Shown: positions 2,260-17,491 of the stretch, piece after piece
Position numbering within the stretch: position 1 is the first letter of the stretch
How the letters are laid out: each line of letters starts with the position of its first letter
Source of the DNA: Escherichia coli
GTDB lineage: Bacteria; Pseudomonadota; Gammaproteobacteria; Enterobacterales; Enterobacteriaceae
DNA length: 64,000 nt
Assembly (NCBI RefSeq): GCF_041248615.1
Contig: NZ_CP158425.1
Direction: 5' to 3' (one strand)
Made by a program: the position numbers and the translations under genes
The notes under the pieces: model-generated
The model's database searches: none
Seen by the model: the letters and a program-made list of their open reading frames with translations, nothing else
What the model was told of the DNA's origin: nothing

Positions 2260-2605
2260 CCTGCGGGTTCTGACTGGAAAGGGCGCTCAGATCGACACCA
2301 CGACTGCGTCCGGTCGCATGGTGTTCGGAATCTTCGCCACCTTGGCCGAGTTCGAGCGGGATCTGATCCGAGAGCGCACCATGGCGGGTCTCGCCTCCGC
2401 GAGAGCGCGCGGTCGCAAGGGCGGACGAAAATTCGCGCTCACCAAAGCTCAGGTGCGTCTCGCGCAAGCCGCCATGGCCCAGCGCGATACTTCAGTTTCC
2501 GATCTCTGCAAGGAACTCGGCATCGAGCGCGTCACTCTCTACCGATATGTCGGTCCCAAAGGCGAGCTCAGAGACCATGGAAAGCATGTTCTCGGACTTA
2601 CGTAG
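2260..2605 (+). pseudogene. tnpR: Tn5393 resolvase tnpR, 3' fragment (5' end removed by IS26)
   Basis: 346 bp identical in translation to the 3' part of the intact tnpR at 11075-11420; begins directly at the IS26 boundary. Confidence 0.9.
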
Positions 2606-2669
2606 TGGACTTGCCTCGGTTTCGTTCCGGTCTTTTTGAGAGCATTATTTGTTATCAAGGAGACCATAT

Positions 2670-2945
2670 ATGTCATTAAAGCATAGTGATGAATTTAAGC
2701 GTGATGCAGTTCGCATAGCACTCACTAGTGGCTTAACACGCCGTCAAGTTGCGTCAGATTTAAGTATTGGGCTTTCCACGCTTGGGAAATGGATCGCATC
2801 AATTTCCGATGAAACTAAAATTCCTACCCAAGACACTGATCTTCTGCGTGAGAATGAACGTTTACGCAAAGAGAACCGTATCCTTCGGGAGGAGAGGGAG
2901 ATATTAAAAAAGGCAGCAATATTTTTCGCAGTACAAAAGCTGTGA
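2670..2945 (+). CDS. IS1133 transposase OrfA (helix-turn-helix)
   Basis: IS3-family OrfA-like protein with leucine-zipper C-terminus; ATG at 2670 preceded by AAGGAG. Confidence 0.8.
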   Translation: MSLKHSDEFKRDAVRIALTSGLTRRQVASDLSIGLSTLGKWIASISDETKIPTQDTDLLRENERLRKENRILREEREILKKAAIFFAVQKL

Positions 2946-3799
2946 GATTTCAGTTTATTACGGATTACCGTGGCTCTCTCTCACGTTCACGCATATGTCG
3001 TTTGATGGGCGTAACAGATCGTGGTTTACGTGCATGGAAACGCCGTCCTCCATCACTGCGCCAGCGTCGTGATCTTATACTTCTAGCGCATATACGTGAG
3101 CAGCATCGGTTGTGTTTGGGGAGCTATGGTAGGCCGCGTATGACAGAAGAGTTGAAAGCGCTGGGCCTGCAGGTTGGGCAGCGTCGGGTTGGACGTTTGA
3201 TGCGCCAGAATAACATTACAGTTGTTCGAACGCGTAAATTCAAACGGACAACGGATAGTCATCATACCTTCAACATTGCACCGAACCTATTAAAACAAGA
3301 CTTTAGCGCAAGCGCACCCAACCAGAAATGGGCAGGCGATATCACTTATGTTTGGACCAGAGAAGGATGGGTCTATCTTGCTGTTATCCTTGACCTGTAT
3401 TCCCGTCGCGTGATTGGCTGGGCAACAGGTGATCGATTAAAGCAGGATCTTGCATTAAGGGCACTGAATATGGCGTTGGCTTTACGCAAACCACCACCGG
3501 GTTGTATTCAACACACAGACCGTGGGAGCCAATATTGCGCTCATGAATATCAAAAGCTACTGCTCAAACATCAATTGCTGCCGTCCATGAGCGGGAAAGG
3601 CAATTGTTTTGATAACTCCGCAGTAGAAAGCTTCTTTAAATCATTAAAGGCTGAGTTGATTTGGCGCAGACACTGGCAAACAAGGCGAGATATTGAGATT
3701 GCAATCTTCGAATATATAAATGGCTTTTATAATCCACGCCGAAGACATTCAACACTCGGCTGGAAATCGCCGGTGGCATTTGAGAAAAAAGCCGCTTAA
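2942..3799 (+). CDS. IS1133 transposase OrfB (integrase core, DDE)
   Basis: 285 aa ORF overlapping OrfA in typical IS3 frameshift arrangement; DITYV...integrase core. Confidence 0.85.
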   Translation: MRFQFITDYRGSLSRSRICRLMGVTDRGLRAWKRRPPSLRQRRDLILLAHIREQHRLCLGSYGRPRMTEELKALGLQVGQRRVGRLMRQNNITVVRTRKFKRTTDSHHTFNIAPNLLKQDFSASAPNQKWAGDITYVWTREGWVYLAVILDLYSRRVIGWATGDRLKQDLALRALNMALALRKPPPGCIQHTDRGSQYCAHEYQKLLLKHQLLPSMSGKGNCFDNSAVESFFKSLKAELIWRRHWQTRRDIEIAIFEYINGFYNPRRRHSTLGWKSPVAFEKKAA

Positions 3800-3905
3800 A
3801 ATGAGAGATAGACCGGAACACAACCGGTGCAAGTCCATAGCAACTCGTTTCTTTTCGCAGGTTGAGCCACCTCCGCGCTTCATCAGAAAACTGAAGGAAC
3901 CTCCA

Positions 3906-4709
3906 TTGAATCGAACTAATATTTTTTTTGGTGAATCGCATTCTGACTGGTTGCCTGTCAGAGGCGGAGAATCTGGTGATTTTGTTTTTCGACGTGGTGA
4001 CGGGCATGCCTTCGCGAAAATCGCACCTGCTTCCCGCCGCGGTGAGCTCGCTGGAGAGCGTGACCGCCTCATTTGGCTCAAAGGTCGAGGTGTGGCTTGC
4101 CCCGAGGTCATCAACTGGCAGGAGGAACAGGAGGGTGCATGCTTGGTGATAACGGCAATTCCGGGAGTACCGGCGGCTGATCTGTCTGGAGCGGATTTGC
4201 TCAAAGCGTGGCCGTCAATGGGGCAGCAACTTGGCGCTGTTCACAGCCTATCGGTTGATCAATGTCCGTTTGAGCGCAGGCTGTCGCGAATGTTCGGACG
4301 CGCCGTTGATGTGGTGTCCCGCAATGCCGTCAATCCCGACTTCTTACCGGACGAGGACAAGAGTACGCCGCAGCTCGATCTTTTGGCTCGTGTCGAACGA
4401 GAGCTACCGGTGCGGCTCGACCAAGAGCGCACCGATATGGTTGTTTGCCATGGTGATCCCTGCATGCCGAACTTCATGGTGGACCCTAAAACTCTTCAAT
4501 GCACGGGTCTGATCGACCTTGGGCGGCTCGGAACAGCAGATCGCTATGCCGATTTGGCACTCATGATTGCTAACGCCGAAGAGAACTGGGCAGCGCCAGA
4601 TGAAGCAGAGCGCGCCTTCGCTGTCCTATTCAATGTATTGGGGATCGAAGCCCCCGACCGCGAACGCCTTGCCTTCTATCTGCGATTGGACCCTCTGACT
4701 TGGGGTTGA
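3906..4709 (+). CDS. strA: aminoglycoside 3''-phosphotransferase APH(3'')-Ib (streptomycin resistance)
   Basis: Protein from NRTNIFFGESHSDWLPVRGG... to ...LRLDPLTWG matches StrA; TTG start at 3906; ORF-track upstream extension not coding. Confidence 0.95.
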   Translation: MNRTNIFFGESHSDWLPVRGGESGDFVFRRGDGHAFAKIAPASRRGELAGERDRLIWLKGRGVACPEVINWQEEQEGACLVITAIPGVPAADLSGADLLKAWPSMGQQLGAVHSLSVDQCPFERRLSRMFGRAVDVVSRNAVNPDFLPDEDKSTPQLDLLARVERELPVRLDQERTDMVVCHGDPCMPNFMVDPKTLQCTGLIDLGRLGTADRYADLALMIANAEENWAAPDEAERAFAVLFNVLGIEAPDRERLAFYLRLDPLTWG

Positions 4710-5545
4710 TGTTCATGCCGCCTGTTTTTCCTGCTCATTGGCACGTTTCGCAACCTGTTCTCATTGCGGACACCTTTTCCAGCCTCGTTTGGAAAGTTTC
4801 ATTGCCAGACGGGACTCCTGCAATCGTCAAGGGATTGAAACCTATAGAAGACATTGCTGATGAACTGCGCGGGGCCGACTATCTGGTATGGCGCAATGGG
4901 AGGGGAGCAGTCCGGTTGCTCGGTCGTGAGAACAATCTGATGTTGCTCGAATATGCCGGGGAGCGAATGCTCTCTCACATCGTTGCCGAGCACGGCGACT
5001 ACCAGGCGACCGAAATTGCAGCGGAACTAATGGCGAAGCTGTATGCCGCATCTGAGGAACCCCTGCCTTCTGCCCTTCTCCCGATCCGGGATCGCTTTGC
5101 AGCTTTGTTTCAGCGGGCGCGCGATGATCAAAACGCAGGTTGTCAAACTGACTACGTCCACGCGGCGATTATAGCCGATCAAATGATGAGCAATGCCTCG
5201 GAACTGCGTGGGCTACATGGCGATCTGCATCATGAAAACATCATGTTCTCCAGTCGCGGCTGGCTGGTGATAGATCCCGTCGGTCTGGTCGGTGAAGTGG
5301 GCTTTGGCGCCGCCAATATGTTCTACGATCCGGCTGACAGAGACGACCTTTGTCTCGATCCTAGACGCATTGCACAGATGGCGGACGCATTCTCTCGTGC
5401 GCTGGACGTCGATCCGCGTCGCCTGCTCGACCAGGCGTACGCTTATGGGTGCCTTTCCGCAGCTTGGAACGCGGATGGAGAAGAGGAGCAACGCGATCTA
5501 GCTATCGCGGCCGCGATCAAGCAGGTGCGACAGACGTCATACTAG
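4709..5545 (+). CDS. strB: aminoglycoside 6-phosphotransferase APH(6)-Id (streptomycin resistance)
   Basis: Protein MFMPPVFPAHWHVSQPVLIADTFSS... matches StrB; start overlaps strA stop (TGATG). Confidence 0.95.
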   Translation: MFMPPVFPAHWHVSQPVLIADTFSSLVWKVSLPDGTPAIVKGLKPIEDIADELRGADYLVWRNGRGAVRLLGRENNLMLLEYAGERMLSHIVAEHGDYQATEIAAELMAKLYAASEEPLPSALLPIRDRFAALFQRARDDQNAGCQTDYVHAAIIADQMMSNASELRGLHGDLHHENIMFSSRGWLVIDPVGLVGEVGFGAANMFYDPADRDDLCLDPRRIAQMADAFSRALDVDPRRLLDQAYAYGCLSAAWNADGEEEQRDLAIAAAIKQVRQTSY

Positions 5546-5570
5546 ATATCAAGCGACTTCTCCTATCCCC

Positions 5571-5651
5571 TGGGAACACATCAATCTTACCGGAGAATAT
5601 CGTTGGCCAAAGCCTTAGCGTAGGATTTCGCCCTCTCCCGCAAACGACCCC
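5571..5651. repeat. Tn5393 81-bp terminal inverted repeat (IRR)
   Basis: Reverse complement aligns with the IRL at 7762-7842 with a few mismatches. Confidence 0.85.
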
Positions 5652-5880
5652 TTTATTGTAGGTGGGCCAGTTGGTGATTTTGAACTTTTGCTTTGCCACG
5701 GAACGGTCTGCGTTGTCGGGAAGATGCGTGATCTGATCCTTCAACTCAGCAAAAGTTCGATTTATTCAACAAATCCACGTTGTGTCTCAAAATCTCTGAT
5801 GTTACATTGCACAAGATAAAAATATATCATCATGAACAATAAAACTGTCTGCTTACATAAACAGTAATACAAGGGGTGTT

Positions 5881-6696
5881 ATGAGCCATATTCAACGGGA
5901 AACGTCTTGCTCGAGGCCGCGATTAAATTCCAACCTGGATGCTGATTTATATGGGTATAAATGGGCTCGCGATAATGTCGGGCAATCAGGTGCGACAATC
6001 TATCGATTGTATGGGAAGCCCGATGCGCCAGAGTTGTTTCTGAAACATGGCAAAGGTAGCGTTGCCAATGATGTTACAGATGAGATGGTCAGACTAAACT
6101 GGCTGACGGCATTTATGCCTCTTCCGACCATCAAGCATTTTATCCGTACTCCTGATGATGCATGGTTACTCACCACTGCGCTCCCCGGGAAAACAGCATT
6201 CCAGGTATTAGAAGAATATCCTGATTCAGGTGAAAATATTGTTGATGCGCTGGCAGCGTTCCTGCGCCGGTTGCATTCGATTCCTGTTAGTAATTGTCCT
6301 TTTAACAGCGATCGCGTATTTCGTCTCGCTCAGGCGCAATCACGAATGAATAACGGTTTGGTTGATGCGAGTGATTTTGATGACGAGCGTAATGGCTGGC
6401 CTGTTGAACAAGTCTGGAAAGAAATGCATAAGCTTTTGCCATTCTCACCGGATTCAGTCGTCACTCATGGTGATTTCTCACTTGATAACCTTATTTTTGA
6501 CGAGGGGAAATTAATAGGTTGTATTGATGTTGGACGAGTCGGAATCGCAGACCGATACCAGGATCTTGCCATCCTATGGAACTGCCTCGGTGAATTTTCT
6601 CCTTCATTACAGAAACGGCTTTTTCAAAAATATGGTATTGATAATCCTGATATGAATAAATTGCAGTTTCATTTGATGCTCGATGAGTTTTTCTGA
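5881..6696 (+). CDS. aph(3')-Ia: aminoglycoside 3'-phosphotransferase APH(3')-Ia (kanamycin/neomycin resistance)
   Basis: Protein MSHIQRETSCSRPRLNSNLDADLYGYKWARDNVGQSGATIYRLYGK...; upstream leader matches Tn903-type aphA1 context. Confidence 0.95.
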   Translation: MSHIQRETSCSRPRLNSNLDADLYGYKWARDNVGQSGATIYRLYGKPDAPELFLKHGKGSVANDVTDEMVRLNWLTAFMPLPTIKHFIRTPDDAWLLTTALPGKTAFQVLEEYPDSGENIVDALAAFLRRLHSIPVSNCPFNSDRVFRLAQAQSRMNNGLVDASDFDDERNGWPVEQVWKEMHKLLPFSPDSVVTHGDFSLDNLIFDEGKLIGCIDVGRVGIADRYQDLAILWNCLGEFSPSLQKRLFQKYGIDNPDMNKLQFHLMLDEFF

Positions 6697-6849
6697 TAGT
6701 TAGTCTTTGTAGAGACACAAACCTGAAATTCCGGACACCGCGCTTCAGGACATCTCCCTGGACGCCGATATCTGGCAGTATCCGGACGGTACTATCGAAC
6801 GCCGGGCCAACGGTACTCCCCTGCCCTTTATGACTGACGACCGGCTATT

Positions 6850-7758
6850 TCACCCACGCACTTCTCCATGAAATTTAGCATCGTCGCGGTTAATGTCGAA
6901 AATTTGCCACCTGACGTGGTTGGCATCGAGGGTGAAAACTGCCGTGGCGAGGGTGTTCTCCTCATCCGGATCGTCGGCAGCCAGCCGGTAAATTGGCAGT
7001 TCTGCGTCATGGGTATCTGAGAGAATGGTTTTTGCCGCCGCGGCGTCAAACGGAGGTTGCGTTTCCCGCCACTGCACGAGGCGTAACTGCCGCGACGCTG
7101 AACTGTCGGTAACGATCTGCTCAACGCCAGCCAGTGCCGCATGCACCAGATGGTTGGCATGCCCGGTTACCGTCGTCAGGGGTAGAACGGAACAGCCTTG
7201 ACCGGTGGCCTCAACGCTGAACAGCCGCGCATCGCCCAGCTGCCCGAGCGTATGGTGAAACGCCCCGGATCGCGGCTGGCCGGTAAGTATAGTGATGGCC
7301 TCGTCGAGGGTGTTCGCATTCAGCGAGGCGCGAGCCAGGATCTGACGCGGTAATCCCTGCGGACGATACACTGCACGGATGTTATTCACCGTGTTAACGA
7401 TACCTTTTTCATTTACCGCAAAGGTGTGGCCGCAAATCGACCCCGGATAGGCAAAACTCGTAAAGCTCAGACCGCGACTCGGAGTAATGGTAGCCAGCAA
7501 GCATTCATCCCGTAACTGAGGAAAACCGTCTTCATTATGCGCGATAATCCGCTCGCCTGCGGCGTTTACCCCGGCCACCGTCGTACAGCCATCCGACGTT
7601 GAGCGCACCAGATCGCCACGGCAGTTCCAGGCAAAGACCTGATCAACAGTGGCCTCCAGTCCCTGCGCCAGCCCCTCCAGCTCCTGCCAGATGTGCGGAT
7701 AATGCCGCTGCACCTCGGCGCGCATTAACCGGGTCTCAGGGGATGCCTGCAGGGTCAT
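6850..7758 (-). CDS. C45-family autoproteolytic acyltransferase/hydrolase-like protein (tentative)
   Basis: About 302 aa; DGCTTV motif resembles the Gly-Cys self-cleavage site of acyl-CoA:6-APA acyltransferase-like enzymes; ends 3 bp before Tn5393 IRL. Confidence 0.5.
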   Translation of the reverse strand: MTLQASPETRLMRAEVQRHYPHIWQELEGLAQGLEATVDQVFAWNCRGDLVRSTSDGCTTVAGVNAAGERIIAHNEDGFPQLRDECLLATITPSRGLSFTSFAYPGSICGHTFAVNEKGIVNTVNNIRAVYRPQGLPRQILARASLNANTLDEAITILTGQPRSGAFHHTLGQLGDARLFSVEATGQGCSVLPLTTVTGHANHLVHAALAGVEQIVTDSSASRQLRLVQWRETQPPFDAAAAKTILSDTHDAELPIYRLAADDPDEENTLATAVFTLDANHVRWQIFDINRDDAKFHGEVRG

Positions 7759-7761
7759 CAC

Positions 7762-7842
7762 GGGGTCGTTTGCGGGAGGGGGCGGAATCCTACGCTAAGG
7801 CTTTGGCCAGCGATATTCTCCGGTGAGATTGATGTGTTCCCA
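7762..7842. repeat. Tn5393 81-bp terminal inverted repeat (IRL)
   Basis: GGGGTCGTTTGCGGGAGGGGGCGGAATCCTACGCTAAGG...; tnpA reading frame terminates inside it. Confidence 0.85.
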
Positions 7843-10680
7843 TCCGAGCGGCGAAACATGGGCCAAGAGATCGGGCGATAGCAGCTTTCCATCGCGTTTC
7901 TGGTTTGCAACGACCTCGCCGAGCTTCATGGTGTTCCAGAAGATGATGATGGCGGCGAGCAGATTCATGCCGGCGATGCGGTAATGCTGGCCTTCGGCGG
8001 AACGGTCGCGGATTTCACCGCGGCGGTGGAAGCTGATTGCCCGCTTCAGCGCATGATGAGCTTCGCCTTTGTTGAGCCCGATCTGGGCACGCCGTTGGAG
8101 TTCGGCATCCAGAATCCAGTCGATCATGAACAGGGTGCGCTCGACGCGACCGACTTCCCGCAGGGCTGTCGCGAGCTCGTTCTGCCGCGGATAGGAGGCG
8201 AGTTTCCGCAGAATCTGGCTTGGCGCGACGGTCCCGGCAGCAATGGTGGCGGCGATGCGCAGGATGTCGGGCCAATTGCGCTCGATCATGGCTTGGTTGA
8301 CCTTTCCGCCGATCAACGCTCGCAGGTGCGCCGGGGCGGCCGACGGATTGAACGCGTAGAGCCGTTTGGATGGCAGGTCGCGGATGCGCGGAGCGAACCG
8401 GTAGCCGAGAATGGCACATGCGGCAAAGACGTGATCGGTGAAGCCGCCCGTGTCGGTGAACTGCTCGCGGATATGGCGTCCAGCATCGTTCATCAGCAGG
8501 CCATCGAGGATGTAAGGCGCTTCGCTTGCCGTTGCAGGAATCACCTGGGTTGCGAACGGCGCATATTGGTCGGAGACGTGGCTATAGGCTTTCAGGCCCG
8601 GGGTATTGCCATATTTCGCGTTGACCAGGTTCATGGCCTCACCTTGCTCTGTAGCGACGAAGAACTGTCCGTCGCTCGAAGCCGACGTGCCCATGCCCCA
8701 GAACCGGGCCATGGGTAACGCTGCCTGTGCCTCGACCACCATGGCCAGCGCCCGGTCATAGGCTTCGCCCTCGACATGCCACCGTCCAATGCGGATCAAT
8801 TCCCAGAAGGTGTGGGTGTTTGTCGCATCCGCCATTTTGCGCAAGCCGAGGTTGATCCCTTCCGCCAAGATAACGTTCATTAGCCCGATCCGGTCAGCGC
8901 AGGGTGCTCCTGTGCGCAGATGGGTGAACGCTTCGGTGAAGCCGGTCGCCGCATCCACCTCCAGCAGGAGATCGGTGATGCGCGTGGGCGGGATCTGCTT
9001 GTAGAGATCGAGCACCAGATCTTCGGCGCCTGTCGGCGCGGCGGCTTCGAGTTTCTCGATATGCAGAACGCCGTTTTCAATCGACCCGCCCGGGATCGTG
9101 CCTGCGCGAGCGGCACGGCCAAGCTCGCGCAACCGCATGTCGAGGCGAGCTTGCCGGTCTGCCAGCCATTCCTCCGGCCGCAATGGCACAGCGAGACGAC
9201 CGCCTTCCGCGATGGATTGTGCCGGAACGAGTGCGTGTTTCAGATCGCCATAGCGCCGGGACCTAGTAAGCCAGACATCTCCGGAGCGGAACGCATCGCG
9301 CAGATGGAACAGCACCGCGATCTCCCATAGGCGAGCGTCGCCAGCCCTCTGGGCCCGAAGGTGGCGATGCCATTTCGAGCTGGGCCGCAAGAAGCTGGTC
9401 ATCGCGGCATCGTTCAAACCGGTACGAAGGGCCGTCACCGCTTCCAGAAGCGGCAGTGCAACGGGCGCAGCTCGCAGATCGAGCAGGCGCAACATGCGTG
9501 GAGCGTATCGGCGGAAGCGGTGATAACCGTCGAGCACATGATTGAGCGGATCGTCGGCCATGGTGGCGGTCAGCCTGGTTGCCATTGCAACAAGGGTTTT
9601 TAAGCCGTCCCACCCTGACCCACTCGCGATGACATCGCCCAGCGGCTGGCCATCATCCTGTGCATCGACCAGGGCGCCCCCGATCTCGGCGAAGGATTTC
9701 AGGGTGTCACGCACCACCCCCGCTTCGTCTGCGACCTTTGCATGGCAAATACGCTCCGAAGCACGGTAGAGACGGCCGACGATCCGGTCGTGGGTTTCGA
9801 CCACTGCGTCGGCCAACATCGCCTGCCATTCCGAGACGCAAACAGCCAAGATCGCAAGCCGCCTGTCCTCCGGGAGATCGCGCATGCCGTCGGCATAATA
9901 CCGTTCACCCTGCCTGCGCAGACGAGTCACCCGATGGGCAGGAACGCCGGCAAGCAGATCCTCGGGGAGATCGATGCGTTGCAGATATTCGAGCCGGTCG
10001 AGCAGCCGGTTGGCCGACGAAGAGTTCGAGCCAGGCTCGAACTGGCGCAGCCACACAAAACGGGTCACCCGATCATCAGCCGTCTCCTCGAGCAATGCCA
10101 GCAACTGTTCTCGGATCGACATAGGCAGCCGACTGGCGATCCTCGTCTCGATGCGTCGCTCGGCATCGACGAGAGCCGCGGCACAAAGCCGCTCGATCGT
10201 GGATGTCGCGGGAAGGACAGTGCGGGTGCGTCGGCACTCGGCTACGAAGCGACGGGCGATATCCTCGTTCGACACCGCCATCTCGGCTTCTCGGAACAAC
10301 CATTCCTTCAGCTCGCTCGCACCACGTCCGGAGAAGGTGCGGAAGCCGTAGAGCCCCCGTAACTCGGCAAGATGCTCGTGCCGTGTTTCCTCGCGGGCAG
10401 CATAGTCTACGAGATCGTCGGCACCCAGGCCAAGCTGCGCTCCGATAAATTCGATGACCTCTGCAGGGATCAGTTCGCCTGGAGCCAGCACCCGGCCGGG
10501 ATAGCGCAGGACACACAATTGCAGGGCGAAGCCGAACCTGTTGTGAGCGCGCCGACGCAGCCTGATATGCCCAAGGTCTTCATCACTCAGCGTATAGTGC
10601 TTGAGCAAATCCGTCTGTGAAGTCGGCAAGCGCAACAGCGCGTCTTTCTGCCGATCGGTTAGAGTGACGCGACGCGGCAT
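7795..10680 (-). CDS. tnpA: Tn3-family transposase TnpA of Tn5393
   Basis: 961 aa ORF typical of Tn3-family transposases; divergent from tnpR. Confidence 0.95.
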   Translation of the reverse strand: MPRRVTLTDRQKDALLRLPTSQTDLLKHYTLSDEDLGHIRLRRRAHNRFGFALQLCVLRYPGRVLAPGELIPAEVIEFIGAQLGLGADDLVDYAAREETRHEHLAELRGLYGFRTFSGRGASELKEWLFREAEMAVSNEDIARRFVAECRRTRTVLPATSTIERLCAAALVDAERRIETRIASRLPMSIREQLLALLEETADDRVTRFVWLRQFEPGSNSSSANRLLDRLEYLQRIDLPEDLLAGVPAHRVTRLRRQGERYYADGMRDLPEDRRLAILAVCVSEWQAMLADAVVETHDRIVGRLYRASERICHAKVADEAGVVRDTLKSFAEIGGALVDAQDDGQPLGDVIASGSGWDGLKTLVAMATRLTATMADDPLNHVLDGYHRFRRYAPRMLRLLDLRAAPVALPLLEAVTALRTGLNDAAMTSFLRPSSKWHRHLRAQRAGDARLWEIAVLFHLRDAFRSGDVWLTRSRRYGDLKHALVPAQSIAEGGRLAVPLRPEEWLADRQARLDMRLRELGRAARAGTIPGGSIENGVLHIEKLEAAAPTGAEDLVLDLYKQIPPTRITDLLLEVDAATGFTEAFTHLRTGAPCADRIGLMNVILAEGINLGLRKMADATNTHTFWELIRIGRWHVEGEAYDRALAMVVEAQAALPMARFWGMGTSASSDGQFFVATEQGEAMNLVNAKYGNTPGLKAYSHVSDQYAPFATQVIPATASEAPYILDGLLMNDAGRHIREQFTDTGGFTDHVFAACAILGYRFAPRIRDLPSKRLYAFNPSAAPAHLRALIGGKVNQAMIERNWPDILRIAATIAAGTVAPSQILRKLASYPRQNELATALREVGRVERTLFMIDWILDAELQRRAQIGLNKGEAHHALKRAISFHRRGEIRDRSAEGQHYRIAGMNLLAAIIIFWNTMKLGEVVANQKRDGKLLSPDLLAHVSPLGWEHINLTGEYRWPKP

Positions 10681-10805
10681 ACATGTTCCTTTTTCAAAAT
10701 CTGATAGCGTTCAAGACGCTTTGTTTATGAAGCTGGTTGAGATACATTTCCAGAGGTCAATGCAATCGTGGCCGAAGCGCCGCCTCAAACCAACGTTTGT
10801 GATAC
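10681..10805. promoter_or_regulatory. res site / divergent tnpA-tnpR promoter region of Tn5393
   Basis: 125-bp intergenic region between divergently transcribed tnpA and tnpR, the usual position of res in Tn3-family elements. Confidence 0.6.
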
Positions 10806-11420
10806 ATGCTGATCGGATATGCCCGCGTCTCCAAAGCCGATGGCTCGCAGTCTCTCGACCTGCAGCACGACGCCTTGCGCGCCGCAGGTGTCGAACGGGA
10901 CAATATCTATGATGATCTTGCTTCCGGCGGTCGTGATGATCGCCCTGGCTTGACTGCCTGCCTCAAGTCATTGCGTGACGGCGATGTGCTGGTGGTCTGG
11001 AAGCTCGATCGCCTCGGACGATCGCTTGCCCATCTGGTCAACACGGTGAAGGAGCTGTCAGACCGCAAGATCGGCCTGCGGGTTCTGACTGGAAAGGGCG
11101 CTCAGATCGACACCACGACTGCGTCCGGTCGCATGGTGTTCGGAATCTTCGCCACCTTGGCCGAGTTCGAGCGGGATCTGATCCGAGAGCGCACCATGGC
11201 GGGTCTCGCCTCCGCGAGAGCGCGCGGTCGCAAGGGCGGACGAAAATTCGCGCTCACCAAAGCTCAGGTGCGTCTCGCGCAAGCCGCCATGGCCCAGCGC
11301 GATACTTCAGTTTCCGATCTCTGCAAGGAACTCGGCATCGAGCGCGTCACTCTCTACCGATATGTCGGTCCCAAAGGCGAGCTCAGAGACCATGGAAAGC
11401 ATGTTCTCGGACTTACGTAG
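10806..11420 (+). CDS. tnpR: Tn5393 resolvase TnpR (serine recombinase)
   Basis: 204 aa; N-terminal MLIGYARVSKADGSQSLDLQ serine-recombinase motif; C-terminal helix-turn-helix. Confidence 0.95.
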   Translation: MLIGYARVSKADGSQSLDLQHDALRAAGVERDNIYDDLASGGRDDRPGLTACLKSLRDGDVLVVWKLDRLGRSLAHLVNTVKELSDRKIGLRVLTGKGAQIDTTTASGRMVFGIFATLAEFERDLIRERTMAGLASARARGRKGGRKFALTKAQVRLAQAAMAQRDTSVSDLCKELGIERVTLYRYVGPKGELRDHGKHVLGLT

Positions 11421-11450
11421 CAACTCGTTTCTTTTCGCAGGTTGAGCCAC

Positions 11451-11871
11451 AGAGGTGGATCAGGAAATTTGAACAACACTTATAAGTGATATTTTGCTCC
11501 CCAAATGATGTTATAAACATCAATATATGGAGTATTTTATGACACGTAGACCAAGAAGAAATCATTCAAATGACTTTAAAGCTAAGGTAGCACTTGCTGC
11601 GATTAAAGCAGAAAAAACACTTGCTGAATTGAGTGCTGAATTTGATGTTCATCAAAACCAAATTATTGACTGGAAAAATCAACTGATTTCAGCTTCCTCG
11701 CAAGCTTTCGATCAATCAAAAGCTCCAACAGAACCACCCATCGATCTAAAAAAACTACATGCAAAAATCGGTGAGCAGGCATTAGAAATTGATTTTTTAG
11801 AAGGTGTGTTGAAGAAACTGGGTCGCTTCAACCACAAAAGTTAATCGATGACTCACTTCAGATTTCAGTAT
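11451..11871 (+). mobile_element. IS3-family element, left end only (AT-rich), truncated
   Basis: Starts AGAGGTGGATCAGG (similar to ends of the IS at 13781-15064); contains OrfA but no OrfB before the IS5-family element. Confidence 0.55.
11539..11844 (+). CDS. IS3-family transposase OrfA
   Basis: MTRRPRRNHSNDFKAKVALAAIKAEKTL... similar to the OrfA at 14669-14980. Confidence 0.7.
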   Translation: MTRRPRRNHSNDFKAKVALAAIKAEKTLAELSAEFDVHQNQIIDWKNQLISASSQAFDQSKAPTEPPIDLKKLHAKIGEQALEIDFLEGVLKKLGRFNHKS

Positions 11872-11938
11872 CTAGGGTCAGGACCCATTGATTTGAACTG
11901 ACGGCTGTGATTCAGATGGGCGTATAGGAGCCCGACTG

Positions 11939-12289
11939 ATGAGTAATTTGTTTTGGCTGACGGACGAGCAAATGGCTCGTCTTCAGCCCTATTTCCCCAA
12001 GAGCCATGGCCGCCAGCGCGTTGATGATCGACGCGTTCTGAGCGGCATCATCTTCGTCAACCGCAACGGGCTGCGTTGGCGTGATGCGCCGAAGGAATAT
12101 GGCCCGGCGAAGACGCTTTATAACCGCTGGAAACGCTGGGGCGACAAGGGCGTATTTATCCAGATGATGGAAGGTCTGGCCGTGCCTGAAGCCGCAGAGC
12201 ACAAGACCATCATGATCGATGCGACCTATCTCAAGGCCCACCGCACGGCTTCCAGCTTGCGGGTAAAAAAGGGGGCGCGGGCCGCCTGA
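11939..12289 (+). CDS. IS5-family transposase, N-terminal ORF
   Basis: 116 aa MSNLFWLTDEQMARLQPYFP... typical IS5/IS427-group OrfA. Confidence 0.75.
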   Translation: MSNLFWLTDEQMARLQPYFPKSHGRQRVDDRRVLSGIIFVNRNGLRWRDAPKEYGPAKTLYNRWKRWGDKGVFIQMMEGLAVPEAAEHKTIMIDATYLKAHRTASSLRVKKGARAA

Positions 12290-12309
12290 TTGGACGCACG
12301 AAAGGCGGC

Positions 12310-12699
12310 ATGAACACCAAGCTTCATGCCGTAACGGATGCGAGTGGTCGCCCGATCAGCTTCTTCATAACGGCAGGCCAGGTCAGCGATTACACCGGTG
12401 CTGCCGCCTTGCTTGATGAACTTCCCAAGGCCAAATGGTTGCTGGCCGACCGTGGCTATGATGCCGACTGGTATCGTGACGCTTTACAGGCGAAGGGGAT
12501 CACTCCCTGCATTCCAGGTCGAAAATCCCGCAAGAAGACCATCAAATACGACAAACGCCGCTACAAACGGCGCAACCGGATCGAGATCATGTTCGGGCGT
12601 CTCAAAGACTGGCGGCGTGTCGCTACGCGTTACGACCGGTGCCCAATGGCCTTTCTCTCCGCCATCGCTCTCGCTGCGACCGTTATCTTCTGGCTATGA
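12310..12699 (+). CDS. IS5-family transposase, C-terminal ORF (DDE)
   Basis: 129 aa, ...LADRGYDADWYRDAL... DDE-domain portion; likely joined to OrfA by frameshifting. Confidence 0.75.
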   Translation: MNTKLHAVTDASGRPISFFITAGQVSDYTGAAALLDELPKAKWLLADRGYDADWYRDALQAKGITPCIPGRKSRKKTIKYDKRRYKRRNRIEIMFGRLKDWRRVATRYDRCPMAFLSAIALAATVIFWL

Positions 12700-12719
12700 G
12701 CAATGAGTCCTGACCCTAG

Positions 12720-13318
12720 CGCATATCAAGCCAGAGGAGCCTGAGGTACTTGGTCTTTTAGCCCTCATGGAACTCCAGTGCTCTCGGCTGCTTGCCCGAC
12801 AAGATCGTCAAGGCTTGCCAGTGCCGCTCGATCGTCAGGATCGTGGCTTGTGGGATCGATTGCTCATACGTCGAGGTCTGGAGATAGTTGAGCGAGCATG
12901 CCGCATGTCGTCTCCCACTGGATGGTATCTTCTGCAAGCGTTGATTTCTGCTTGTCACGCGCGGGCTGCGAGCTTTCGAGACACCAATTGGCGAGAGATA
13001 CTGGCGAGATATGACGCGCTCTTCCTGTTGAGCCCTACATACGTAGTTGCCCTCAATCGAGCAGTCGCTGTGTCGTGGGCCATGAACCCCGCTGCAGGGA
13101 TGGCGGTCCTTAAGGCGATTGAGGACGAGTGGGACGTGGAGACCTACCCGCTTTTTCACGCGACGCGGGCGGATTTCCTTTCGCGTCTTGGTTTCCAAGA
13201 CCAAGCTGCGGCAGCCTATCAGGCTGCGGCCGTACTCAGCACCAACCTACCTCAAAAGTTGTTCTTGGTCACGCGCGCTGAGGAATGCCTGGCAGGGTCT
13301 CGGACAGATGTTGGATAA
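12720..13318 (+). pseudogene. ECF-type RNA polymerase sigma factor, C-terminal domain fragment (GC-rich)
   Basis: YLLQALISACHARAASFRDTNWREI...VVALNRAVAV resembles C-terminal extension of ECF sigma factors; N-terminal sigma regions absent. Confidence 0.45.
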
Positions 13319-13841
13319 CATCAGTCGATTGACGGTGATTGCGCGCACGTGGACGCGCATCATGACAGGTATGACGAGCCTTTGAACGTCCGCTGGCTGT
13401 GCCGGCGCCATCATATCCGGCTGCACTTCTACGGTGAGGACATGTTTCCTATGTGCAGGCCGCATCACGTATGAACGGCGGCTCTCCGGTTATGCCTCAA
13501 CGCCGCTGAAAGCGTCGCGCGGTCAGTCAGCCATGACGATCATACCTTATTCAGATCATGCGATCGGCGCCCTGCCATCAGGAGGATGAAATGCGTAAAG
13601 ATCAGATCCCGGATTTCGTTGATGAGATCTTCGCCACCGGCTGCCCAATCACCGCAGTAGGACAAGATTGCTATGTTTTGCAGAGAGCGATCTGCTGGCA
13701 GAAGACTTCGACCGTGTTGGTGAGGTGGTCGATAAAATCTGCCAGCGATAAGGAAAGCGTGACCATCTGTTGCTGACATCAGAGGTGGCTCGGTTTGTCT
13801 GAACAGTTTTGGGCGTTTTGCTAAGTGGATTTCCGCCTTGA

Positions 13842-14672
13842 TTATGCCGCCACCATCATTGGTGCCAGCGCGTTGAAGTAGGCCTGATCCGGCGTCTGCC
13901 GGTCAAGGGATGAATGTGGACGTCGGCTATTGTAGAAGGCGAGATAGCGGCCGATGCCAGCGCGAGCCTCGGATACGGTCTTGTAGGCGTGGAGATAGAC
14001 CTCTTCGTATTTGATCGACCGCCAGAGCCGCTCGACGAAGACGTTGTCGCGCCACGCGCCCTTGCCATCCATCGAGATGGCGATCTCCGCCTTCTTCAGC
14101 ACGGCTGTGAAGTCGATGGAGGTGAACTGCGAACCCTGATCGGTGTTGAATATTTCAGGCTTTCCATAGCGGGCCAGCGCGTCCTCGACCGCTTCGATGC
14201 AGAAGTCCGCCTCCATCGTGATCGACAGCCGCCAGGACAGAACCCGCCGGCTAAACCAGTCCACGACGGCGCAGAGATAGACGAATCCCCGCGCCATCGG
14301 CACATACGTTATGTCCATTGCCCAGACCTGGTTGGGCCGGGTGACCGCCAGCTTGCGCAGGAGATAAGGATAGATTTTGTGACCTGGCGCTGGTTTGGAG
14401 GTGTTCGGGCGACGGTAGATTGCCTCGATGCCCATCTTCTTCATCAGCGTGGCGACGTGCAACCGCCCGACCTCGGTCCCTTCACCCCTCAAAAGCCCTT
14501 GCAACATCCGACTTCCGGCGAACGGATAGTCGAGGTGCAGTTCGTCGATCCGCCGCATCAGGTCCAGATCGCCGTCGGACACTTGACGTGGAGAATAGTA
14601 GACACTGCCACGGCTGAAGCCGAGAAGCCTGGCCTGACGTGCGACCGACAGTTTGTGTGTTCGGTCGATCAT
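13842..14672 (-). CDS. IS3-family transposase OrfB (integrase core)
   Basis: 276 aa with DITYV...D...E integrase core; overlaps OrfA by 4 nt. Confidence 0.85.
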   Translation of the reverse strand: MIDRTHKLSVARQARLLGFSRGSVYYSPRQVSDGDLDLMRRIDELHLDYPFAGSRMLQGLLRGEGTEVGRLHVATLMKKMGIEAIYRRPNTSKPAPGHKIYPYLLRKLAVTRPNQVWAMDITYVPMARGFVYLCAVVDWFSRRVLSWRLSITMEADFCIEAVEDALARYGKPEIFNTDQGSQFTSIDFTAVLKKAEIAISMDGKGAWRDNVFVERLWRSIKYEEVYLHAYKTVSEARAGIGRYLAFYNSRRPHSSLDRQTPDQAYFNALAPMMVAA

Positions 14673-14980
14673 TTCTTTCCGCCCAGCAATCCCGCTTTGC
14701 CGAGCGCTCCGGCTAAAAAATCATTCTCCAATGTCAGTTCGCCTATTTTGGCGTGCAGCGTTTTGACATCGACGGTTGGACCTGCCGGTTCCGCCTTCGC
14801 TTCATCGCCGAAAACGCCTGTCGCCCCATCAAGGAGCTGGTCTTTCCACTGTTTGATCTGGTTGGCATGCACGTCGAACTGCTGGGACAATTCCACCAGC
14901 GTCTGCTCACCTCGGATCGCGGCGAGCGCCACTTTTGCCTTGAAAGCCGGGCTGTGGTTCCGGCGCGGTCGTCTTGTCAT
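14669..14980 (-). CDS. IS3-family transposase OrfA
   Basis: MTRRPRRNHSPAFKAKVALAAIRGEQTL... Confidence 0.8.
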   Translation of the reverse strand: MTRRPRRNHSPAFKAKVALAAIRGEQTLVELSQQFDVHANQIKQWKDQLLDGATGVFGDEAKAEPAGPTVDVKTLHAKIGELTLENDFLAGALGKAGLLGGKK

Positions 14981-15226
14981 GGTATCTCCTGTTCCCGGCA
15001 TCTAAGCCGAAGTCAGGCAGAAATTCCACTTATCACCGCTGTGCAGATTTCCCGAGCCACCTCTATCGTCGATCATTTGAGGAGCCTCGGCCGTTTCTAC
15101 GACCTGCGGCTTGAGACACTCCAATAGCGACTATGGGTCGGTCCGCGCTTTAGAATAAGGGATCTAGACCCTGTCGCCAATTTTGGCCTGACGGGGGTTT
15201 CCAGCTACGCCTTCATATGTCGTGCC

Positions 15227-15418
15227 TCAGCCGCGCTGCAAGCGCCGGGCACTGATGCCCAGCATGCTGGTGGTCTTCACCTTTCCGCCGACGCGCCTGA
15301 GGATGATGATTGCCGCGTCCGTGGCCAGCCCGGTGCCGATGGCAGCCAAATGACCCAATTGGAACGGCAGATAGCCCGGCTTGACCACGAGAAGCACTCC
15401 GATGAAGCCGATGACCAC
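15227..15418 (-). pseudogene. possible EamA/DMT transporter fragment
   Basis: 63 aa hydrophobic ORF GFIGVLLVVKPG...; short remnant only. Confidence 0.3.
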
Positions 15419-15999
15419 GGCGGTCCACCGCCGAACCGCGATGCTGAAGCCACAAATCGAGCTTTGCGAGGAGTTTCTTTATCCGTCTCAATGAGATAAG
15501 GGCCAACTTTAGATCAAGTGCGTCGTAGTACGGCGTGCACCTTGGGCTTGATCCAGCTATAGTGTAATTGTATGCTGGAAATATGTGCAACCCTGGTGTC
15601 TAGGCCGTGCGAAGCCAATCAGGCTCGAAAGTCGTTGCGGGTTGTTATCCGTTAAAGGCGGCGACTGTAGCCGCCGCTATTTGGCCCCTTGATACCATTT
15701 AGCATTTGGAGCTTTAGGTTCTATAATTTAACGTTACGCTACAGCCGACACCCCGCTTGCCTGAGCGTTTGGATTTCAATCACTTAGTAGACCAACTTGC
15801 GGGTCGACGGTTCGTGTCCCTTCAAGGCGGAGGCTTCGGCAGCTGGCGTCTCTATGCCGCGGTGGTGCTTTTCCGAAACGGAAGTCGCCCATTCGCGTCA
15901 CGTAAACCGACCGTCAGGCGGTACGGCTTAGGAGAATAATCGCAAAGCAGACTGAGACCACCACCCTCGCGCTACCCTTTGCGCAGGCGTCGAAGGCGA

Positions 16000-16542
16000 T
16001 CAGGTGCGCTGATCGAGTCTGTCGAGCACCATCGCTGCAAGTTCATCGCTGGTGTGTGCACCACTATCGAGAACACGGGTTGTGGACGGAAGCCGTTCCC
16101 TTGCGGCCAAGCATCGGGCGACATTCGCTAATCGCCACTCTCGAATCTCCGCATTCCGATTCGGGTCAGGATGCATGGTCTGGTTCGAGATCCGGTGACG
16201 CAATAGGTCCTCGTTAAGCATCAGAAAGATGTGCAGCAGCTGATCGTCGATCTGCCTTAACCCGTCGAGTATCTCAGTCAGATAGTCCGGGTGCACGAGC
16301 GTCATTGGGATGATGATGTCCTGCGAGTAATTCCTGCGAATCTCGCTGACCGCAGCGATCGTAAGTCCCCTCCACAAGGGGAGATCCTGATAGTCTCCGC
16401 TCGCTGGTATGGGGACCGTTTCTTTCACCACGAACCCGATTTCCTCAGGGTCAAAGATCAGCGATTTCGGACGCCGATCGCGCAGCCGCTCAGCGAGAGT
16501 CGTCTTTCCGGCGCCGAAAGGTCCGTTGATCCAGATTATCAT
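16000..16542 (-). CDS. tmrB: TmrB-like P-loop ATPase (tunicamycin resistance protein family)
   Basis: 180 aa with Walker A GPFGAGKTT; lies immediately downstream of aac(3)-II as in remembered contexts. Confidence 0.8.
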   Translation of the reverse strand: MIIWINGPFGAGKTTLAERLRDRRPKSLIFDPEEIGFVVKETVPIPASGDYQDLPLWRGLTIAAVSEIRRNYSQDIIIPMTLVHPDYLTEILDGLRQIDDQLLHIFLMLNEDLLRHRISNQTMHPDPNRNAEIREWRLANVARCLAARERLPSTTRVLDSGAHTSDELAAMVLDRLDQRT

Positions 16543-16554
16543 TGTCGACGGCCT

Positions 16555-17415
16555 CTAACCGGAAGGCTCGCAAGAGCGCTGGGCGGCTTCGTGTGCTGGC
16601 ACGATCGGAGTGGCTCCGAAGTGCTTCTCAAGATAGGTGACGCCGAACGTCACGATGTCCTGCGCGTCGAACAGGTAGCACTGAGCAAAGCCCACGACAC
16701 CTTCTCGATGGCGACCGAGCTTCACGTAAGCATTTGCTATAGTTTCGACCGCATCCGGCTTTCCTTCGATAGCAAAGCAATCGAGAATGCCGTTTGAATC
16801 GTATTCTGATGCCGTTTTCCAGGCGACTTCACCGTTTCTTCCAAGCATCGGCATCTCATACGTCACCCATCGTTTGTTGGGGATATCCGCAACCGCCTCG
16901 GCGTAGTGCAATGCGGTAACGGAGTTTAGCGGCGCACCCAACAGCAGGGCCTTCCCGCCAAGGCGGACGAACCGCTCGACGGGCGACCCTTCCCCCAAGG
17001 CGTGACCGAGTTCGTGAGGCTCCGTCAGCGTTTCAGCTAGCGGACCAACCGCGACCATCGATGCATCGGGGTGCGCGCTGCGCCGCGCGCCGGGGGCTTG
17101 AACCAGAAATTGATTCAGCAGGCCGAACCCACGGTAAGTCCCGGCCGTTGCGGGATCGAACGGCGGCCAGGTACGGCGGGCTTTGTCATCCAACCGAGCG
17201 CCATTCAGAGTCTCCTCGTAGGGTGATCGGTCCCACGACGCGTATCCCATCACAGTGCCAGTCGGCCCAACCGCGGAGCGTAACGCGGCAACGACCGTCT
17301 CCGCTCCTCCTTCGACCGGACCAATCGCTTTAAGTGAGGCATGCACCATCAACAGGTCACCGGTTTGGACTCCGAGTTTTCGAATTGCCTCCGTTATTGC
17401 CTTCCGCGTATGCAT
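16555..17415 (-). CDS. aac(3)-II: aminoglycoside N-acetyltransferase AAC(3)-II (gentamicin resistance); sub-variant not resolved
   Basis: 286 aa MHTRKAITEAIRKLGVQTGDLLMVHASLKAIGPVEGGAETVVAALR... matches AAC(3)-II family. Confidence 0.92.
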   Translation of the reverse strand: MHTRKAITEAIRKLGVQTGDLLMVHASLKAIGPVEGGAETVVAALRSAVGPTGTVMGYASWDRSPYEETLNGARLDDKARRTWPPFDPATAGTYRGFGLLNQFLVQAPGARRSAHPDASMVAVGPLAETLTEPHELGHALGEGSPVERFVRLGGKALLLGAPLNSVTALHYAEAVADIPNKRWVTYEMPMLGRNGEVAWKTASEYDSNGILDCFAIEGKPDAVETIANAYVKLGRHREGVVGFAQCYLFDAQDIVTFGVTYLEKHFGATPIVPAHEAAQRSCEPSG

Positions 17416-17491
17416 CGCGATATCTCCTTTTAAATTAAAAATGAAGTTTTAAATCAATCTAAAGTATATATGAGTAAACTTGGTCTGACAG

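Follow-up and report, generated by a model that had tools for sequence, protein, structure and literature searches.

A patchwork of insertion sequences and gene remnants beside aac(3)-IIe on an E. coli IncHI2 plasmid and its probable route from Rhizobiaceae

We analyzed a 4.5 kb patchwork of insertion sequences (IS) and broken genes that lies beside the gentamicin-resistance gene aac(3)-IIe on an Escherichia coli IncHI2 resistance plasmid (positions 11451-15999 of the window, by which we mean the whole 64,000-nucleotide stretch from contig NZ_CP158425.1). Most probably the patchwork is non-functional passenger DNA, the left-hand part of a mobile unit with later IS damage, whose scars are explained by travelling with aac(3)-IIe and whose junctions trace a route that began in Rhizobiaceae of soil and wastewater and led by way of Acinetobacter to enterobacteria. 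As a structure the patchwork is known and not new, since the window is 100% identical to the annotated E. coli IncHI2A plasmid p14408_M1, with matching annotation, and the same stretch is present in 17 plasmid records. This is ordinary resistance-region biology; the modest extra is a lead on the source of aac(3)-II and tmrB.

Components of the patchwork

The first-pass annotation had placed a mosaic of five components between Tn5393 and tmrB, and all five could be located at base level where it had put them. None is a chance pattern, and each boundary is backed by an empty-site or intact-element comparator. GC content is 55-58% in the GC-rich parts compared with 45.3% in window 20000-64000. 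IS names were taken from RefSeq product labels. Only the two intact IS elements, ISKpn11 and ISKpn12, are likely to be active in E. coli, and the sigma factor, HNH and transporter pieces are dead remnants.

On the left, the patchwork abuts the left part of Tn5393 (7762-11450), annotated as a Tn3-family transposase and recombinase (tnpA 7795-10680, minus strand; tnpR 10806-11420, plus strand) and 100% identical to positions 2312-6424 of plasmid pHHV35. tnpR is followed by 30 bp ending in a CAC target triplet at 11448-11450, and the unbroken CAC target (...GAGCCACCTCCGCG) is present at window 3838-3887. Directly after CAC, at 11451, begins the truncated AT-rich IS3-like left end that had been described earlier, an ISAba14-like element on the plus strand of which 422 bp are kept (11451-11872, 35.8% GC), including the left inverted repeat and orfA (11527-11844). 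Alignment to intact copies places the cut at element position ~424 of ~1283 bp. The orfA product matched HTH_Tnp_1 under the Pfam cut-off (22 vs 24.1 bits). ISAba14 is the nearest named element (96.7% identity to the annotated sequence), with 99.8% identity to an unnamed IS3 variant common on Acinetobacter plasmids, and Acinetobacter accounts for 315 of the 415 plasmids matching this left end. The AT-rich IS is an Acinetobacter element and so hints at an intermediate host that the earlier annotation did not name.

The adjoining IS5-family element is a complete ISKpn12 (11873-12718, plus strand; 846 bp including the terminal TA dinucleotides) of the two-ORF frameshift type. Its ORFs (11939-12289 and 12310-12699) carry DUF4096 (N-terminal part) and DDE_Tnp_1 domains according to Pfam, and RefSeq joins both frames as one CDS. 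The 13-bp inverted ends noted before are the perfect outer part (CTAGGGTCAGGAC) of a 19-nt terminal inverted repeat that is complementary at 18 of 19 positions. Length (~0.85 kb for this type), terminal inverted repeats and two-frame transposase all agree with the IS5 family. Insertion occurs at TA with a 2-bp duplication, as TA stands beside GGGTCAGGAC or GTCCTGACCC at 4/4 junctions examined and the intact target has a single TA. Outside clinical plasmids, the nearest relatives were found full-length at 92-93% in Shinella and as a partial match of 94% in Sinorhizobium.

The inner end of ISKpn12 cuts an ECF-type sigma gene at TA (junction GTCCTGACCC-TA-GCGCATATC), leaving a plus-strand fragment at 12719-13318 (coding 12722-13318) with the 3' 198 codons, which encode the terminal part of DUF6596 followed by a TPR-like tail. 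The ECF-sigma-like fragment reported previously is thus genuine as a C-terminal part only. It matches just the last 44 positions of Pfam DUF6596 and aligns to residues 246-427 of a 430-aa reference sigma factor, so the sigma-2 and sigma-4 regions that define ECF factors (residues 34-181 of the reference) are absent from 12722-13318. Its best non-mobile relatives are ~50% identical, none above ~55%, and so scattered taxonomically that a source cannot be assigned. The following spacer (13319-13780, plus strand) holds an HNH-like remnant at ~13348-13471 (motif WLCRRHHIRLH) and an annotated 61-aa hypothetical ORF (13591-13776). For 13348-13452, nucleotide identities of 73-84% were found on Paracoccus, Rhizobium, Sinorhizobium, Agrobacterium and Aminobacter plasmids.

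The complete GC-rich IS3-family element is ISKpn11 (13781-15064, minus strand). Its 1284 bp fall within the 1.2-1.5 kb usual for IS3, its 26-nt inverted repeats are imperfect (81% complementary), and its two ORFs, orfA (15001-14669) and orfB (14672-13842), overlap at 14669-14672. Pfam matches were HTH_Tnp_1 for orfA (25.4 bits) and rve (92 bits), rve_3 and HTH_21 for orfB. Terminal 5'-TG...CA-3' is common but not universal in the IS3 family and was not found at the ends of ISKpn11, which read AGAGGTGG...CCACCTCT. The ISAba14-like element has the same end type. ATC flanks ISKpn11 at 13778-13780 and 15065-15067, and the ATC duplication proposed earlier is proven by the uninterrupted site GACATCGTC, with a single ATC, in pHHV35 and in Shinella plasmids. 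The nearest full-length relatives outside clinical plasmids are 88-90% identical in Rhizobium, Sinorhizobium, Ensifer and Shinella, and one 100% copy lies on a Sphingomonas plasmid.

The last piece is a 935 bp non-coding remnant downstream of tmrB (15065-15999, minus strand). The suspected transporter fragment within it, at ~15258-15432 on the minus strand, is of the DMT/EamA type and comprises 58 internal codons with 76% identity to residues 121-178 of a 330-aa EamA/DMT protein from Rhizobium sp. SSA_523. Two EamA domains in ~300 residues, as in a whole transporter, are not present in these 58 residues, in which Pfam finds nothing. The cargo follows on the minus strand at 16000-17415, with a tmrB-like ATPase gene (16000-16542) and aac(3)-IIe (16555-17415).

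Comparison with pHHV35 and a proposed route of assembly

The closest structural comparator is pHHV35, which carries the arrangement known as Tn5393g. It shares with the window Tn5393 tnpA-tnpR, the ISAba14-like insertion with its CAC duplication, the ISKpn12/sigma junction, tmrB and aac(3)-IIe, all at 99.9-100% identity. In pHHV35, two identical ISKpn12 copies in direct orientation enclose a unit that splits the ISAba14-like element at position 663; the target is otherwise continuous, with element positions 1-663 and 662-1283 flanking the unit and TA on both sides, a target duplication examined in pHHV35. This arrangement shows the likely mechanism, insertion of a two-ISKpn12 unit into the ISAba14-like element of Tn5393. 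TA flanks of 2 bp are weak support for transposition of the unit, since ISKpn12 prefers TA as a target in any case.

The window derives from this arrangement by deletion. In pHHV35, strAB, all of the ISAba14-like element and the two ISKpn12 copies are retained. Missing from the window are 235 bp of that element and the complete right end. The left ISKpn12 end is shared with pHHV35, but in the window it is joined at ISAba14-like position 424, after an identical ATCTA pentamer. With the left ISKpn12 copy alone, the window holds a remnant and not an intact composite transposon. ISKpn11 also differs in position, sitting at ATC in the window, whereas pHHV35 has it upstream of aacC2 (ACC duplication) and its ATC site is empty.

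Taken as a whole, the following six-step route, with the patchwork as passenger DNA of an aac(3)-IIe/tmrB unit, is the explanation that we hold with good confidence. Going by the comparators, aac(3)-II and tmrB would have resided in Shinella-like Rhizobiaceae beside DJ-1/PfpI, BA14K, EF-hand and sigma-70 genes, with already-decayed DNA (transporter remnant, HNH remnant, ECF sigma gene) on the other side. Two ISKpn12 copies, an element presumably native to the Rhizobiaceae group, would then have entered TA sites, one inside the ECF gene and one at the DJ-1/PfpI stop codon, creating a composite transposon; here the junctions are visible and the event is reconstructed. As pHHV35 displays, the unit next transposed into the ISAba14-like element by which tnpR and strA of Tn5393 were already separated, on a plasmid of Acinetobacter type, giving Tn5393g. 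ISKpn11 then entered ATC between the HNH and transporter remnants, an insertion seen directly in the window. At the left junction, which is itself visible, the ISKpn12 end would have shifted by 235 bp within the ISAba14-like flank and come to lie at a different ATCTA, with deletion of the DNA between. Finally, as the difference between records shows, the right side beyond ~13-26 bp upstream of aac(3)-IIe was replaced by a Tn2 fragment with blaTEM-1, after which the unit spread on IncHI2 and other plasmids.

Donor neighbourhood and competing explanations

The alphaproteobacterial likeness claimed for the GC-rich pieces holds for ISKpn11, ISKpn12, the transporter fragment and the HNH remnant; it does not extend to the sigma fragment or, among the remaining pieces, to the AT-rich IS. 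Enterobacterial chromosomal genes as closest relatives would have spoken against a foreign source. A scan of 5,426 complete E. coli genomes found the non-IS segments in only 13 of them, always at >=99% identity and thus as mobile copies, and no diverged native homologue among these genomes.

An IS-free counterpart was found on Shinella wastewater plasmids. Window 13650-13780 plus 15065-17441 is uninterrupted there at 99.7-100% identity over 2.5 kb, so that the spacer from 13650 rightwards is identical and the non-coding remnant is contiguous with tmrB and aac(3)-IIe. The block continues into DJ-1/PfpI, BA14K, EF-hand and sigma-70 genes and lacks three IS insertions: ISKpn11 is missing both at ATC and at ACC, its second site, known from pHHV35, and ISKpn12 is missing at its right-hand site. 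The order of these neighbor genes is kept at ~80-83% nucleotide identity on pSymA of S. meliloti Rm41. It is also kept in a Brucella anthropi genome (AAC(3) 84% identical), and Ensifer sp. B1-9 has the aac/tmrB pair at 85%. The nearest AAC(3)-II relatives with an organism name are mostly from Hyphomicrobiales and Paracoccus. These similarities support acquisition from an alphaproteobacterial (Rhizobiaceae) source.

Assembly could instead have been piecemeal, the fragments being joined singly by independent IS events in enterobacterial or Acinetobacter plasmids and never co-linear in one donor. The stretch is visibly mosaic, the transporter and HNH remnants are truncated on both sides with no IS at their edges, and window 12719-13649 is absent from the Shinella copy. 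Yet 13650-17441 is one contiguous block in Shinella, meaning that the transporter remnant had decayed before mobilization, and across all plasmid lineages examined 12719-13780 plus 15065-17428 does not vary, unlike the outer flank of ISKpn12, as would be expected if one segment had been captured. We therefore regard piecemeal joining as unlikely.

The direction of transfer may also be questioned: plasmids from clinics or manure could have delivered the aac(3)-IIe/tmrB block to the Shinella strains, whose context would then be uninformative on origin. They are near-clonal and come from wastewater plants (bioRxiv 10.1101/2024.03.04.583314), and thus count as a single observation, made where clinical plasmids abound, and the 99.7-100% identity would fit recent receipt. 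Nor is the copy pristine. The right side is free of mobile elements for >12 kb, but next to the left edge (window 13650) lie a truncated IS3 orfA and part of a Tn3-family tnpA. A genome scan found no AAC(3)-IIe carrier among Shinella species representatives. The locus, carried by a single clonal lineage, is accessory and plasmid-borne and not a core gene. Of the features used to recognize recent origins (PMC7782503), Shinella/Rhizobiaceae show a near-identical gene and conserved synteny, and presence across the taxon is lacking. However, transfer into Shinella would require three precise excisions to leave three uninterrupted IS target sites. The block moreover runs unbroken into neighbors whose order recurs, at 80-84%, in S. 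meliloti and B. anthropi, and a second, diverged lineage (aac(3)-IId, 96-98%) has the same neighbors, making this reversal quite improbable.

That the fragments or IS read-out were co-opted for a selectable role in the plasmid host is exceedingly doubtful: RefSeq annotates the sigma-fragment ORF, directly downstream of ISKpn12 in the same orientation, as a multispecies 197-aa DUF6596 protein, but this protein lacks both sigma domains, frameshifted copies circulate, in another plasmid lineage that retains aac(3)-IIe a 1.2-kb deletion reaches from the ISKpn11 right end into tmrB and takes the transporter remnant with it, and 100% conservation reflects recency, not selection.

Related captures of resistance genes

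The preferred reading, a Rhizobiaceae source, can be set beside two known systems. The aac(3)-IId lineage, in which ISCfr1 is truncated, is represented by Tn6411 and by the widespread aacC2-tmrB region found on IncF and other plasmids (PMC11232968, PMC4776018). It resembles the window in gene pair and type of donor neighborhood, with 96% identity over window 15953-17441. Downstream of tmrB, only 47 bp (15953-15999) are common to both, and the IId lineage carries a distinct, related IS3 element (86% to ISKpn11) and, in Tn6411, ~6 kb more of the DJ-1/BA14K/EF-hand/sigma-70 neighborhood. With its 2-4% divergence, it looks like an independent, second capture.

We lean, if only slightly, towards a broader proposal in which aac(3)-IIe and aac(3)-IId, gentamicin-resistance genes now common in the clinic, were mobilized with tmrB on two or more occasions out of the pool of accessory plasmids in Shinella-like Rhizobiaceae, with Acinetobacter plasmids as a stepping stone for the IIe lineage and the sigma, HNH and transporter scars in the window as the sole remaining trace of the left flank in the donor. 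No paper stating a Rhizobiaceae origin of aac(3)-IIe/IId and tmrB was found in the literature searched, and term searches of the 2021 origin catalogue (PMC7782503) returned no aac(3) or Rhizobiaceae entry.

A precedent is the mobilization of the BKC-1/GPC-1 carbapenemase genes from Shinella (PMC7674036; PMC7782503). There too, the closest IS-free surroundings of a clinical resistance gene are found in that genus, and the mobilizing IS elements were first named from Klebsiella. BKC-1/GPC-1 genes occur in several Shinella species at 80-93% identity (PMC7674036; PMC7782503). In contrast, aac(3)-IIe matches at 99.7-100% in one clonal Shinella plasmid lineage, and its wider conservation lies in Sinorhizobium, Brucella/Ochrobactrum and Ensifer.

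Organization and recurrence of the mosaic region

The first 25 kb of the window were 100% identical to positions 128001-153000 of p14408_M1, the IncHI2A plasmid of E. coli NRZ14408 (NZ_LT599829.1). RefSeq annotation of this plasmid lists a Tn3-family transposase and recombinase (Tn5393 tnpA and tnpR), ISKpn12, ISKpn11 and IS1, together with a DUF6596 protein, two hypothetical proteins, an AAA ATPase (tmrB), aac(3)-IIe and blaTEM-1. The complete 4,549-bp stretch at 11451-15999 was found in 17 plasmid records at 99.9-100% identity, mostly from E. coli and Salmonella IncHI2 plasmids, and portions of it in well over a thousand records. The p14408_M1 annotation and the full-length matches thus show that the stretch is real, recurrent and already annotated, and its structure, already known, is of an ordinary kind for multiresistance regions. 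In two IncHI2 relatives (NZ_CP026933.2 and NZ_MT929287.1) the stretch is longer, at 6.8 kb against 4.5 kb. At the place that other records give to ISKpn11, the annotation here is a group II intron reverse transcriptase (ltrA), which suggests that an intron inserted in or beside ISKpn11.

The stretch begins with the left end of an ISAba14-like IS3-family element (11451-11872, 35.8% GC), of which only positions 1 to approximately 424 are present when aligned with intact copies. It matches IS3-family elements from plasmids of Acinetobacter, the genus of 315 among the 415 records with a match, and shows 96.7% identity to copies labelled ISAba14 and 99.8% to an unnamed variant. The element starts at AGAGGTGG, directly after CAC, which is found again after its right end in the comparator plasmid pHHV35, and the uninterrupted target GAGCCACCTCCGCG is present in the other, IS26-truncated Tn5393 copy of the window (3838-3887). 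CAC on both sides and the uninterrupted target indicate that insertion produced a 3-bp duplication. IS1133 is the insertion sequence classically located after tnpR in Tn5393. This identity was rejected for the AT-rich IS3 end, since the window has its IS1133 at another place (2606-3837), and the piece in question matches ISAba14-like elements of Acinetobacter.

The IS26-truncated Tn5393 copy spans 2260-5653. Its tnpR 3' end (2260-2605) is a duplicate of 11075-11420 and is followed by IS1133, with a 3-bp overlap, and then by strA-strB. Plasmid pMUB-MIN9-1 is without the interval 2606-11074, which matches the expectation for recombination between the two tnpR repeats.

ISKpn12 (11873-12718) carries a 19-nt terminal inverted repeat with 18 of 19 positions complementary and two ORFs with DUF4096 and DDE_Tnp_1 domains. 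The outermost 13 bp of the repeat are perfect and correspond to the 13-bp inverted ends that the first-pass annotation had described for an IS5-family element. The same annotation had proposed a complete GC-rich IS3-family element with an ATC duplication, and this was borne out by ISKpn11 (13781-15064), which has 26-nt inverted repeats, ORFs with HTH_Tnp_1 and rve domains and ATC on either side, while pHHV35 shows a single ATC at this site (GACATCGTCGATC). Positions 11451-11494 (ISAba14-like left end) and 15021-15064 (ISKpn11 right end) are 77% complementary over 44 nt. The two elements are related, and 11451-15064 is bracketed by a compatible-looking pair of IS ends.

Three gene remnants lie between and beyond the IS elements. 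The sigma-factor fragment (12722-13318) is in a frame open from the ISKpn12 end and covers only positions 58-101 of the 102-position DUF6596 profile. It aligns with residues 246-427 of a 430-residue sigma factor, beyond the reference sigma-2 and sigma-4 regions (residues 34-181), which identifies it as the tail of an ECF-type gene, outside the sigma domains. Protein and tblastn searches (5.8 billion proteins) returned no relatives above about 50-55% outside mobile copies. Protein record P0002, 79% identical to the fragment and with no contig on record, was discarded as a donor lead because it differs from a second record, P0001, as expected if the two came from the same DNA, one copy carrying a frameshift. 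The HNH-like remnant (13348-13471) is a short coding piece with the motif WLCRRHHIRLH; its nucleotide matches (73-84%) were found only in alphaproteobacterial plasmids, and its single Pfam match was weak and sub-threshold (U_exon, E 0.11). The DMT/EamA remnant (ca. 15258-15432, minus strand) was matched via tblastn, with 58 residues 76% identical to residues 121-178 of a 330-residue EamA/DMT protein of Rhizobium sp. SSA_523, while Pfam searches with the 63- and 78-residue translations of transporter ORFs were empty.

Probable assembly steps suggested by pHHV35

Plasmid pHHV35 (FJ012882), which was captured from manure, has the same region. Its ISAba14-like element is complete and interrupted at position 663 by a 6.6-kb unit whose ends are two ISKpn12 copies in direct repeat, enclosing, in order, the sigma fragment, the HNH remnant, the DMT remnant, tmrB, aacC2 and ISKpn11. 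Comparison of the unit junctions (left CCAAATCTA-GGGTCAGG, right CCTGACCC-TAAGTCAGG) with the intact element at the target (CCAAATCTAAGTCAGG) indicates that the unit inserted as one piece at TA. The ISKpn11 copy of pHHV35 itself is located 34 bp upstream of aacC2 and is flanked by ACC. In the window, the ISKpn12 left end, the same as in pHHV35, is joined to ISAba14-like position 424, after another ATCTA. An IS-mediated adjacent deletion of 235 bp would fit this junction; a microhomology deletion is a possible route to the same loss.

A further arrangement was seen in the Salmonella Senftenberg IncC plasmid NZ_CP032192 (positions 5001-9671 of the retrieved sequence L023), where the ISKpn12-plus-cargo unit is circularly permuted. 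On one side it has a full IS1133 and on the other 194 bp from an IS1133 end, both oriented alike, and the overlap is 3 bp (8592-8594 in Shinella coordinates, retrieved sequence L005). This arrangement suggests that a circular ISKpn12-plus-cargo intermediate was captured at IS1133 of Tn5393.

Proposed origin of the aac(3)-II/tmrB neighbourhood

The observed mosaic of IS elements and gene fragments is confirmed. The refuting condition of the first-pass annotation, closest relatives among enterobacterial chromosomal genes, did not hold: the non-IS segments occurred in 13 of 5,426 complete E. coli genomes, in each case at 99% identity or more, and no diverged native gene was among them. The suggested alphaproteobacterial resemblance was supported for the stretch 13650-15999, for the transporter and HNH-like remnants and for the IS elements, but not for the sigma fragment, whose relatives reach only about 50%. 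Outside clinical plasmids, full-length ISKpn11 relatives at 88-90% were found in Rhizobium leguminosarum, Sinorhizobium medicae (seven sites on a single plasmid), Ensifer adhaerens and Shinella sumterensis, and ISKpn12 relatives in Shinella (92-93%), Sinorhizobium (94%, partial) and Brucella anthropi and Agrobacterium (87-89%). An ISKpn11 copy 100% identical to that of the window is located on plasmid NZ_CP029988 (68334-69617) of Sphingomonas sp. FARSPH, an isolate from insect-cell culture medium.

The strongest evidence for the origin comes from two Shinella plasmids in which ISKpn11 is absent and 13650-13780 runs straight into 15065-17441 (99.7-100% identity), although these amount to a single lineage, sampled in a habitat where clinical plasmids abound, the hosts being near-clonal acesulfame degraders from wastewater (bioRxiv 10.1101/2024.03.04.583314). 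The Shinella sequence is also uninterrupted across the second ISKpn11 site of pHHV35 and across the right-hand ISKpn12 insertion point, which is the stop codon of a DJ-1/PfpI gene, and continues with BA14K, two EF-hand genes and a sigma-70 gene. The recurrent order (tmrB, aac(3)-II, DJ-1/PfpI, BA14K, EF-hand, EF-hand, hypothetical, sigma-70) is found on S. meliloti Rm41 pSymA at approximately 80-83% nucleotide identity and in a genome of Brucella anthropi, in which tmrB is followed by genes of housekeeping type. In Ensifer sp. B1-9, aac and tmrB are present as a pair at 85% identity.

The aac(3)-IId lineage of Acinetobacter and Pseudomonas plasmids, whose context is Tn6411 (PMC11232968), contains ca. 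6 kb of this neighbourhood, 96-98% identical to the Shinella sequence, and has only 47 bp in common with the window downstream of tmrB. By sequence comparison, aac(3)-IId appears to have been captured independently, in a second event, from a closely related donor. The block from tmrB to sigma-70 plus one further gene has the same right-hand end in a Shinella plasmid, S. meliloti pSymA and the Tn6411-type sequence of A. baumannii pE47_001 (retrieved sequences L007, ca. 16120-16135; L008, ca. 16469; L006, ca. 12700). This common boundary hints that the block itself is a discrete module in Rhizobiaceae.

The closest organism-named AAC(3)-II relatives were mostly from Hyphomicrobiales and Paracoccus. 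Paracoccus was rejected as the source of the gene pair, since tmrB is not adjacent to the AAC(3) gene in its loci. Nor was the Shinella copy the direct donor, because its left edge (window 13650) adjoins debris of two mobile elements, an IS3 orfA that is truncated and part of a Tn3-family tnpA; this copy is also without 12719-13649. One scan of genome contigs for AAC(3)-IIe, which requires exact 8-residue words and can miss relatives of about 85% identity, returned Paracoccus relatives (72-75%) and one acquired copy only, with none among Shinella and Sinorhizobium species representatives. Transfer in the reverse direction, with Shinella as the recipient, is very improbable, as three IS elements would each have had to excise precisely, and the conserved synteny would be left without an explanation. 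We conclude that the donor belongs to the Rhizobiaceae/Hyphomicrobiales accessory gene pool and is most Shinella-like; we do not claim Shinella as the proven origin. A stated origin of aac(3)-II/tmrB was not found in the searchable literature, a weak negative given that parenthesised terms are unsearchable.

Present role and significance

The stretch 11451-15999 is expected to contribute nothing to phenotype, since all three gene remnants (sigma, HNH and DMT) are truncated and the stretch is situated past the stop codon of tmrB, on the far side of this transcription unit. Expression of aac(3)-IIe probably depends on read-through from blaTEM-1, with which aac(3)-IIe and tmrB are probably co-transcribed. 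At 17416-17491, only 13-26 bp of native (Shinella-type) DNA are left upstream of the aac(3)-IIe start codon, followed by a Tn2 fragment that ends 50 bp past the blaTEM-1 stop.

For the plasmid itself, the region is of little import and represents inert baggage except for ISKpn11 and ISKpn12, which are both intact and remain potential mutagens able to cause deletions. Its value is forensic: because the baggage is copied unchanged, the junctions keep a record of event order and hosts, and they would trace a route from Rhizobiaceae via Acinetobacter-type plasmids to Enterobacterales. The single point of wider interest is a concrete, testable origin hypothesis for aac(3)-II/tmrB. It would make Shinella and its wastewater relatives a source of clinical resistance genes for a second time, after BKC-1 and GPC-1, which likewise pointed at Shinella.

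In plasmid NZ_CP042866 of E. coli ATCC BAA-196 (positions 9191-9200 of the retrieved sequence L024), the ISKpn11 right end is joined to window position 16278 within tmrB. This adjacent deletion of ca. 1.2 kb took away the 3' end of tmrB together with the DMT remnant. The plasmid also has blaTEM-10 at the place of the window's blaTEM-1.
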